Assembly (NCBI GenBank): GCA_048939995.1
Contig: JBHLOY010000028.1
Location: 1-20,279, forward strand
Direction: 5' to 3'
From: Promethearchaeota archaeon
GTDB taxonomy: Archaea > Asgardarchaeota > Lokiarchaeia > Sigyniarchaeales > SOKP01
DNA: 20,279 nt
The translations under genes and the position numbers were made by a program. This document shows positions 13,595 through 14,040 of the stretch, in pieces. How positions within the stretch are numbered: position 1 is the stretch's first letter; each line of letters starts with the position of its first letter. The notes beneath the pieces were generated by a model, which was not told where the DNA came from, did not search any database, and was given only the letters and a program-made list of their open reading frames with translations.

Positions 13595-13846
13595 TCTATA
13601 CCTCAACTTTTTTTTTTCTTAATAAATAATAAACTATATTTTTTTTAATGTTTTGGTAGATGATATTCTTTTAAGTACTATTGTTTTGTGGTTCAACAGC
13701 ATATCACTCTTGAATTAAAGAAAATTTATTCAAAATAAGTTGAAAAATTTAAGTAAACTATGAAAAAGCTTAAAGATGAATAGATTCACCAGAAATAGGT
13801 TTTATAATCAACCAAATAAACCTTTTCAGTAATATAATTAAATTTA

Positions 13847-14000
13847 AGGAAGGAGGAGAATCGGAAACCACGATACTTTTAAATTTTAAAAAGAGGAGAC
13901 GATTTATCTAATAACAGGGTTAAGGGTTGAGGTATTTGAGCCTTCCGGCTTTAGGTATAAGAATATATTTTCTATCATGGCGTTCCGACTCGTTGTTGAT
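13847..14000 (-). ncRNA. Putative novel structured small RNA (~150 nt)
   Basis: 18-bp end-closing helix (13973-13991 with 13858-13875) whose three non-WC pairs are G-U only on the minus strand. AGCC-GGAA-GGCU GNRA hairpin and an upstream BRE/TATA. Confidence 0.65.
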
Positions 14001-14022
14001 AGTAAAATATTAACTAAGCTCA

Positions 14023-14040
14023 TATTTAAATGTTTATTTT
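14023..14040 (-). promoter_or_regulatory. BRE + TATA box driving the putative ncRNA
   Basis: Minus strand reads AAAATAAACA-TTTAAATA. An A at 14000 lies 22 nt beyond the TATA, a typical archaeal TSS spacing. No long ORF starts there. Confidence 0.55.

Follow-up and report, generated by a model that had tools for sequence, protein, structure and literature searches.

Between the genes for a CoiA-like nuclease and a hypothetical protein of 148 amino acids, the genome of Promethearchaeota archaeon GCA_048939995.1 (the source genome, hereafter G000) contains a foldable element that raises two questions: whether it is a gene for an RNA, and what such an RNA would act on. A sequence-only reading had proposed a novel Asgard noncoding RNA (ncRNA) with its own promoter, serving as an anti-Shine-Dalgarno (anti-SD) regulator, a protein sponge or an RNP scaffold. 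We compared the element across f1, the Lokiarchaeia family of G000, and beyond. Coordinates without another label refer to the window, that is, the whole stretch of 20,279 nucleotides analyzed on contig JBHLOY010000028.1; the same stretch holds an ORF at 1218-1859 that presumably resembles a GPN-loop GTPase, with its start after the P-loop.

Anatomy of the RNA gene

On the minus strand, the element folds at -31.7 kcal/mol (z -3.2; 1 of 200 shuffles). The 18-bp closing helix of the sequence-only reading, with one bulged C and three G-U pairs, can be read from the sequence and is part of the MFE as well as the centroid fold, and its G-U pairs are strand-specific. Its 5' arm (13973-13991, minus strand, as for all parts of the gene) shows covariation in helices 1 and 2, and its 3' arm (13858-13875) covaries as well. 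Upstream of the BRE/TATA lies a conserved palindromic box at 14061-14038, absent from the earlier reading and composed of a TTTCC half-site and the palindrome TTKTC-N4-GAMAA, with conservation across 74 distinct promoters of the family and in the second family described below (f2). The TATA box TTTAAATA follows at 14023-14030 and is conserved as TTTAWATA in homologs; the usual archaeal spacing predicts a transcription start near 14000.

The interior of the RNA alternates single-stranded and paired segments. Invariant block A (UAUUCUUAUACCUAA, 13951-13970) is followed by a variable hairpin (helix 3, 13939-13950) in which all four pairs change on both sides, by invariant block B (AUACCUCAACCCUUAACCCUG...UAGAUAAAU, 13902-13936), which is the main seed region discussed below, and by a conserved anti-SD-like RUCUCCUCUUUUU block (13888-13901), whose counterpart in f2 is AUCUCCUUUUU. 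In relatives, block A carries an intron site at two positions and block B at seven. The hairpin, read earlier as AGCC-GGAA-GGCU with a GNRA loop, is likewise in the sequence, and both predicted structures (MFE and centroid) contain it, but its GNRA loop is not conserved: homologs have GAAA, UUAG, UUCG and also longer loops, and the hairpin is missing from the shortened RNA of genus g18. The CCU motifs occur at the positions claimed for them. Among the small AU hairpins, all of them weak, AGAA/UUCU is missing from the centroid fold. The 3' CUCCUCCUUCCU tail (13838-13857) is a pyrimidine- and U-rich segment that varies freely in sequence and behaves like a terminator, which it probably is. The ORF of 24 codons lies where it was placed (13904-13978), but it is rejected as a gene because its frame is not conserved; in homologs it falls in frame 0, 1 or 2, and several have early stops or no ATG.

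Distribution and covariation

A covariance model recovered the RNA in 105 of the 126 f1 genomes, spread over 12 of the 13 genera and with rare exceptions as a single copy per genome, and had no match in 24 genomes outside f1. By BLAST and nhmmer, G000 itself has a single copy. With the intergenic region as a BLAST query, relatives match over the promoter and the RNA, and the flanks diverge except in the closest relatives; the f1 genera that were compared share 93-98% identity in 16S. The upstream and downstream genes change independently among homologs, which marks the RNA gene as stand-alone, and the box, the TATA and the U-tail are conserved although the neighbors change. A fixed RNP with the CoiA-like neighbor is not supported, as the neighboring genes vary.

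Across 68 distinct sequences, 94% of cells in the alignment are paired and 15 of the 18 pairs have changed on both sides, a result that leans favorable, given related sequences and an alignment made to fit the structure; none of 500 shuffles reaches it, and slid partners pair at 26-51%. The pyrimidine-rich loop of ~65 nt is nearly invariant, with 50 columns at 97% or more. The interior inverts the pattern usual for structured RNAs, in that the unpaired blocks are invariant and the hairpin between them varies. Tandem or paralogous copies (L174:333-927, L115, L106, L107) were seen in three genomes: G051 has three, and G157 and G084 have two each. The two in G084 differ in which of the loop blocks they retain.

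No Rfam family matched at the RNA, either in the window or at four divergent homolog loci, and there was no covariance-model match to the tRNA, SRP, RNase P, C/D, H/ACA, Y, vault or telomerase classes. A tRNA search of the window found none at the RNA, and the RNase P and SRP RNA genes of G000 sit elsewhere in the genome. A Y RNA in a Ro60 RNP was considered and rejected, as the genome, at 98% completeness, has no TROVE protein and the bulged C varies among homologs. We found no description of this RNA in the literature, and it is outside all catalogued families. Judged from this conservation, a free-standing ncRNA of ~145 nt is almost certainly real, and the earlier proposal of a new Asgard ncRNA driven by a promoter of its own is supported: the element is covarying, free-standing, single-copy and without an Rfam family.

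The two models, R1 and R2, had no credible homolog in families f3-f7 among the genomes searched; an apparent homolog in f6 lies inside a nitrilase gene and is a false positive. Viral contigs gave no matches to the RNA.

The promoter box

From its position, the upstream box is probably an activator site. In genus g1, it also occurs in reverse orientation 62-82 nt before the start of the TFB-X gene introduced below, downstream of a TATA; other genera are without it there. The top score in a scan of G000 is the same box with a TATA before a gene for a helix-hairpin-helix protein (C11:71865-71890, L198). In Candidatus Lokiarchaeum ossiferum (G055), which belongs to the same order as G000 and to a different family, box and TATA precede a ribbon-helix-helix gene (L162:1501-1522) that has no tblastn match in G000. 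These box-bearing genes are possible members of a regulon, and its regulator may be among them.

Introns inside the loop

In relatives, the invariant blocks are interrupted by 26 distinct insertions of 28-33 nt at nine loop positions, and these are the only large insertions in the blocks. Each can be folded with four exon bases against four intron bases; a bulge of 3 nt comes next on either side, with the cut behind the second of its bases. The central helix has four of four pairs in 21 of the 26 insertions and three of four in the other five (null mean 0.8, maximum 5 of 5000). The flanking helix on the exon side, which the strict hBHBh' form includes, is limited to 0-2 exon pairs, so that only the relaxed motif is present. 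[quoted passage not shown] The BHB geometry with its many G-U pairs fixes the minus strand as the transcribed one, and such introns imply a loop that has to be uninterrupted at the RNA level rather than a site on the DNA.

The TFB-X leader as a probable target

Among matches of the loop to ribosome-binding sites in G000, there are two outliers, namely a hypothetical Zn-ribbon gene on C11 and TFB-X, a transcription factor B paralog (Pfam TFIIB; C19:64459-65346) that a tree places as an f1-specific duplicate. G000 has seven TFB paralogs, on C5, C11, C17 and C19, and these genomes carry 7-10. Duplications within f1 gave rise to three of those in G000 (C19, C5 and C11:380916), a group of which genus g18 has a single member.

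Block B is antisense to the TFB-X leader. Over 33 TFB-X leaders, pairing with the loop averages -21.2 kcal/mol versus -13.9±0.8 for shuffled loops (0 of 200), compared with -13.5 versus -11.4 for the sister paralog P2 and -8.9 for all G000 genes. When the discovery genus is left out, the mean is -21.3 versus -11.6 for shuffled leaders and -15.6±0.45 for shuffles that keep the SD-containing last 22 nt. Genomes within one genus are not independent. Ranked against the genes of G000, 11 of 12 genera are within the top 2.4%. TFB-X ranked first among 24 gene families. Leaders of different genera match different parts of the loop, with registers that shift over ~40 nt: perfect sites of 14, 16 and 18 nt are found in the TFB-X leaders of G088, G080 and G084, in registers unused in G000, and the leaders of genus g22 use the RUCUCCUCUUUUU block. 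Pairing peaks at -15 to -11, on the SD, and reaches -40. In G088 and G094, where an intron interrupts the seed, the leader matches the spliced junction, and pairing is -25.6 and -25.2 with the spliced RNA versus -17.8 and -17.2 with the unspliced one.

A target-blind pattern search also matched TFB-X in five genomes, three of them not sampled before; the genome-wide counts of the search pattern were near control. A recurrent match to the pattern in genus g28 has no ORF behind it. For about six of the 33 TFB-X leaders, pairing does not exceed that of ordinary genes. In the five genomes of genus g18, the shortened RNA is kept and no TFB-X ortholog was found, so TFB-X is not its sole role. These comparisons make it very likely that the RNA pairs with the TFB-X leader. 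Given pairing, repression of translation would be a likely outcome, and the complete reading, a trans-acting small RNA (sRNA) that represses translation of TFB-X, is in our judgment fairly likely.

Two other top matches in G000 did not hold in orthologs, showing that a top rank in one genome is insufficient: the RFC small subunit (-10.9 versus -9.8, 8 of 150) and C13:41349-42197 are both unconserved there. The Zn-ribbon gene (C11:29108-29983; L384:1606-2484) has an 18-nt perfect antisense site to block A at its ribosome-binding site, in the closest relatives only, which points either to recent acquisition of a target or to the copying of a stretch. The gene downstream of the RNA has a conserved GUUGAGGU / AGUUGAGGU before its start (13595-13606), with a 10-nt loop match in G000; this is probably its own SD (family mean -12.5).

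A second family and cultured Lokiarchaeia

The promoter box led us to f2, where 10 of 14 genomes have a gene built on the same plan. It consists of the box, a TATA, a closing stem, AUCUCCUUUUU, a CCCUCU block, a hairpin and an UUUGUUUUGUUUGU block, and the stem core is UCGGA/UCCGA in P. syntrophicum and its genus. The f2 gene often adjoins a gene of the HDAC family, as in part of f1. In the two cultured Lokiarchaeia, it lies at about 1549500-1549620 (+) of the P. syntrophicum chromosome and at about 5152240-5152395 (+) of CP104013.1 in Ca. L. ossiferum. The f1 and f2 RNAs are probably homologous on these grounds, a relationship that is short of proven since the seeds differ.

There is no TFB-X in f2; instead, leaders of another TFB clade, chosen after inspection among about seven paralog clades, pair with both arms around the hairpin. 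In P. syntrophicum, where the TFB leader lies near 1106290 (-), this pairing is -16.6 (top 0.3%, 0 of 100 leader shuffles). It is -16.1 in G052 and -16.6 in L. ossiferum, and weaker in G054 and G037; two of six genomes are weak. Cognate pairs give -17.8 and -13.9, versus -7.6 and -8.2 for crossed ones. The L. ossiferum paralog paired by the f2 RNA (L474, around 1475) has no in-frame ATG, and alignment suggests that it starts with AUU behind a GGGGG SD.

Proposed mechanism and alternative explanations

In the mechanism we propose, the end-joining stem would hold the long pyrimidine-rich loop open, and the loop would base-pair with the leader and SD region of the TFB-X mRNA, masking the ribosome-binding site and repressing translation. 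In intron-bearing genes, the tRNA splicing endonuclease would have to excise the intron before the seed becomes continuous. A transcription factor bound at the promoter box is the probable activator of the RNA; in genus g1, this one factor may turn the RNA on and TFB-X off, as a feed-forward shut-off. Lineage-specific extra targets such as C11:29108-29983 may exist, and further targets or binding of Lsm proteins, for which G000 has four genes, are probably behind the invariance of the whole loop. The broadest form of the proposal, an sRNA switch that predates the split of the two Lokiarchaeia families, shuts off specific TFB paralogs and is gated by the tRNA splicing endonuclease where introns are present, is tentative, and we hold it somewhat less probable than its opposite.

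Several readings would dispense with a specific mRNA target. A general anti-SD RNA, a mimic of the 16S 3' tail or a chaperone of rRNA folding would agree with the 5- and 6-mers of the loop, which are antisense to SD-enriched words beyond shuffles (p about 0.0005), and with an 11-nt antisense match including G-U and an 8-nt match in 16S (L066, at about positions 994 and 1029). The start regions of G000, however, have no genome-wide excess of loop matches of 8-12 nt, on which a general role fails; UCAC, which would pair with the most frequent SD core, GUGA, does not occur in the loop, and the 16S matches are no longer than those in flanking spacer DNA. We therefore regard such a role as very improbable, and the anti-SD proposal survives in a specific form, with one strongly conserved target in the TFB-X leader. 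Less credible still is that the RNA gene and the leader share a DNA-level protein site, or match by chance in AU-rich sequence. Pairing computed with the reverse complement does beat shuffles (z -4.9, versus -6.7), and the wobble bias is small (8 G-U-compatible versus 2 A-C changes, 30 transversions); against this, introns break the motif in the DNA of the RNA gene in many lineages while the leader matches the spliced sequence, registers shift between genera, and shuffles that keep composition or SD fail to reproduce the match. At the bottom of the scale we place a template RNA for a telomerase-like repeat-adding reverse transcriptase, a small-peptide mRNA and a MITE. The CAACCC motif and ring layout superficially resemble ciliate telomerase RNA, and AACCCUU occurs twice, but G000 has no RVT_1 gene and no TTAAGGG arrays, and the repeat is missing from f2 homologs. 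The ATG inside the stem would suit a peptide, were the frame conserved, and the terminal inverted repeat would suit a MITE, were it not for the single copy, an interior better conserved than the ends and the strand-specific G-U pairs.

Two further readings leave the pairing or the loop in place and change its meaning. Pairing with the TFB leader may be real and non-repressive, stabilizing or activating the mRNA, or making the leader a sponge that titrates the sRNA. Methanosarcina mazei sRNA154, which stabilizes some targets and blocks others (PMC5867862), provides a precedent, and pairing extends upstream of the SD; since the SD itself is the most consistently paired segment, we consider this unlikely. 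Slightly less likely, in our estimate, is that the RNA is primarily a protein sponge or RNP scaffold for Lsm/Sm, KH or other pyrimidine binders, with TFB pairing secondary. This reading would account for the invariance of the whole loop, of which each TFB-X leader uses only part, for the persistence of the RNA in g18, and for the U-rich tracts in both families beside the four Lsm genes. It leaves unexplained the perfect antisense sites of 14-18 nt in the leaders of one paralog, in shifting registers and across splice junctions, and the varying neighbors argue against a dedicated partner gene. Sponge and scaffold functions may be secondary roles of the RNA.

Separately, the 16S gene at L066 has a 10-nt sense match to the loop in conserved sequence, at about 1334, which does not exceed matches in spacer DNA; the 16S of G000 itself is unassembled.

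Comparison with known systems

In the literature, we found no regulatory sRNA with a described target for Asgard archaea. Among bacterial sRNAs, RsaE/RoxS use C-rich anti-SD seeds, GcvB has a G/U-rich seed for C/A-rich enhancers, and DsrA, RprA and ArcZ act on rpoS, as activators. By description, the unpaired C-rich seeds of f1 resemble those of RsaE/RoxS and the GU-rich seeds of f2 that of GcvB, and DsrA/RprA/ArcZ share with the Asgard RNA the control, here a proposed one, of a promoter-selectivity factor. No homology to any of them is apparent, the promoter here is archaeal, and to our knowledge none is spliced by the tRNA endonuclease. With 7-10 TFB paralogs per genome, the RNA would offer a concrete control point for their deployment; if the proposal is true, the outcome would be a change of promoter choice like that brought about by sigma factors, and a splicing-dependent small-RNA control over basal transcription in Asgard archaea.

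The closest archaeal counterparts are M. mazei sRNA162, sRNA154 and sRNA41 (PMC3510493; PMC5867862), which are likewise intergenic, have their own promoters and place single-stranded seeds on ribosome-binding sites in trans; the targets of sRNA162 include the mRNA of a transcription factor (PMC3510493; PMC5867862). The Asgard RNA has no sequence or Rfam match to them and differs in that its seed is an invariant ~65-nt loop held by an end-to-end stem and conserved across the family, is often interrupted by introns, and is directed at a general transcription factor. Pyrobaculum asR1 (PMC3388794) is likewise a small RNA antisense to the 5' end of one mRNA among those of several TFB paralogs. In contrast to asR1, which is cis-encoded inside tfb1 with full complementarity (PMC3388794), the Asgard RNA has its gene at another locus, and its pairing is partial, with a register that changes from genus to genus.

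The introns follow those of archaeal tRNAs, rRNAs and a few mRNAs, the known BHB substrates (PMC7714728), in the 4-bp central helix, the 3-nt bulges cut after the second base, the hairpin form of ~30 nt, and repeated gains at non-canonical positions (PMC7714728; PMC2738675; bioRxiv 10.64898/2026.10.13.758758); Asgard tRNAs themselves gain BHB introns repeatedly (bioRxiv 10.64898/2026.10.13.758758). They differ in that the exon-side helix is mostly missing and in their host, a regulatory ncRNA, which is not among the substrates in those papers. Introns of the tRNA endonuclease would thereby extend to a regulatory RNA, with at least nine insertion positions, and offer a fresh approach to the origin of BHB introns in Asgard archaea, the question left open by the 2026 preprint.
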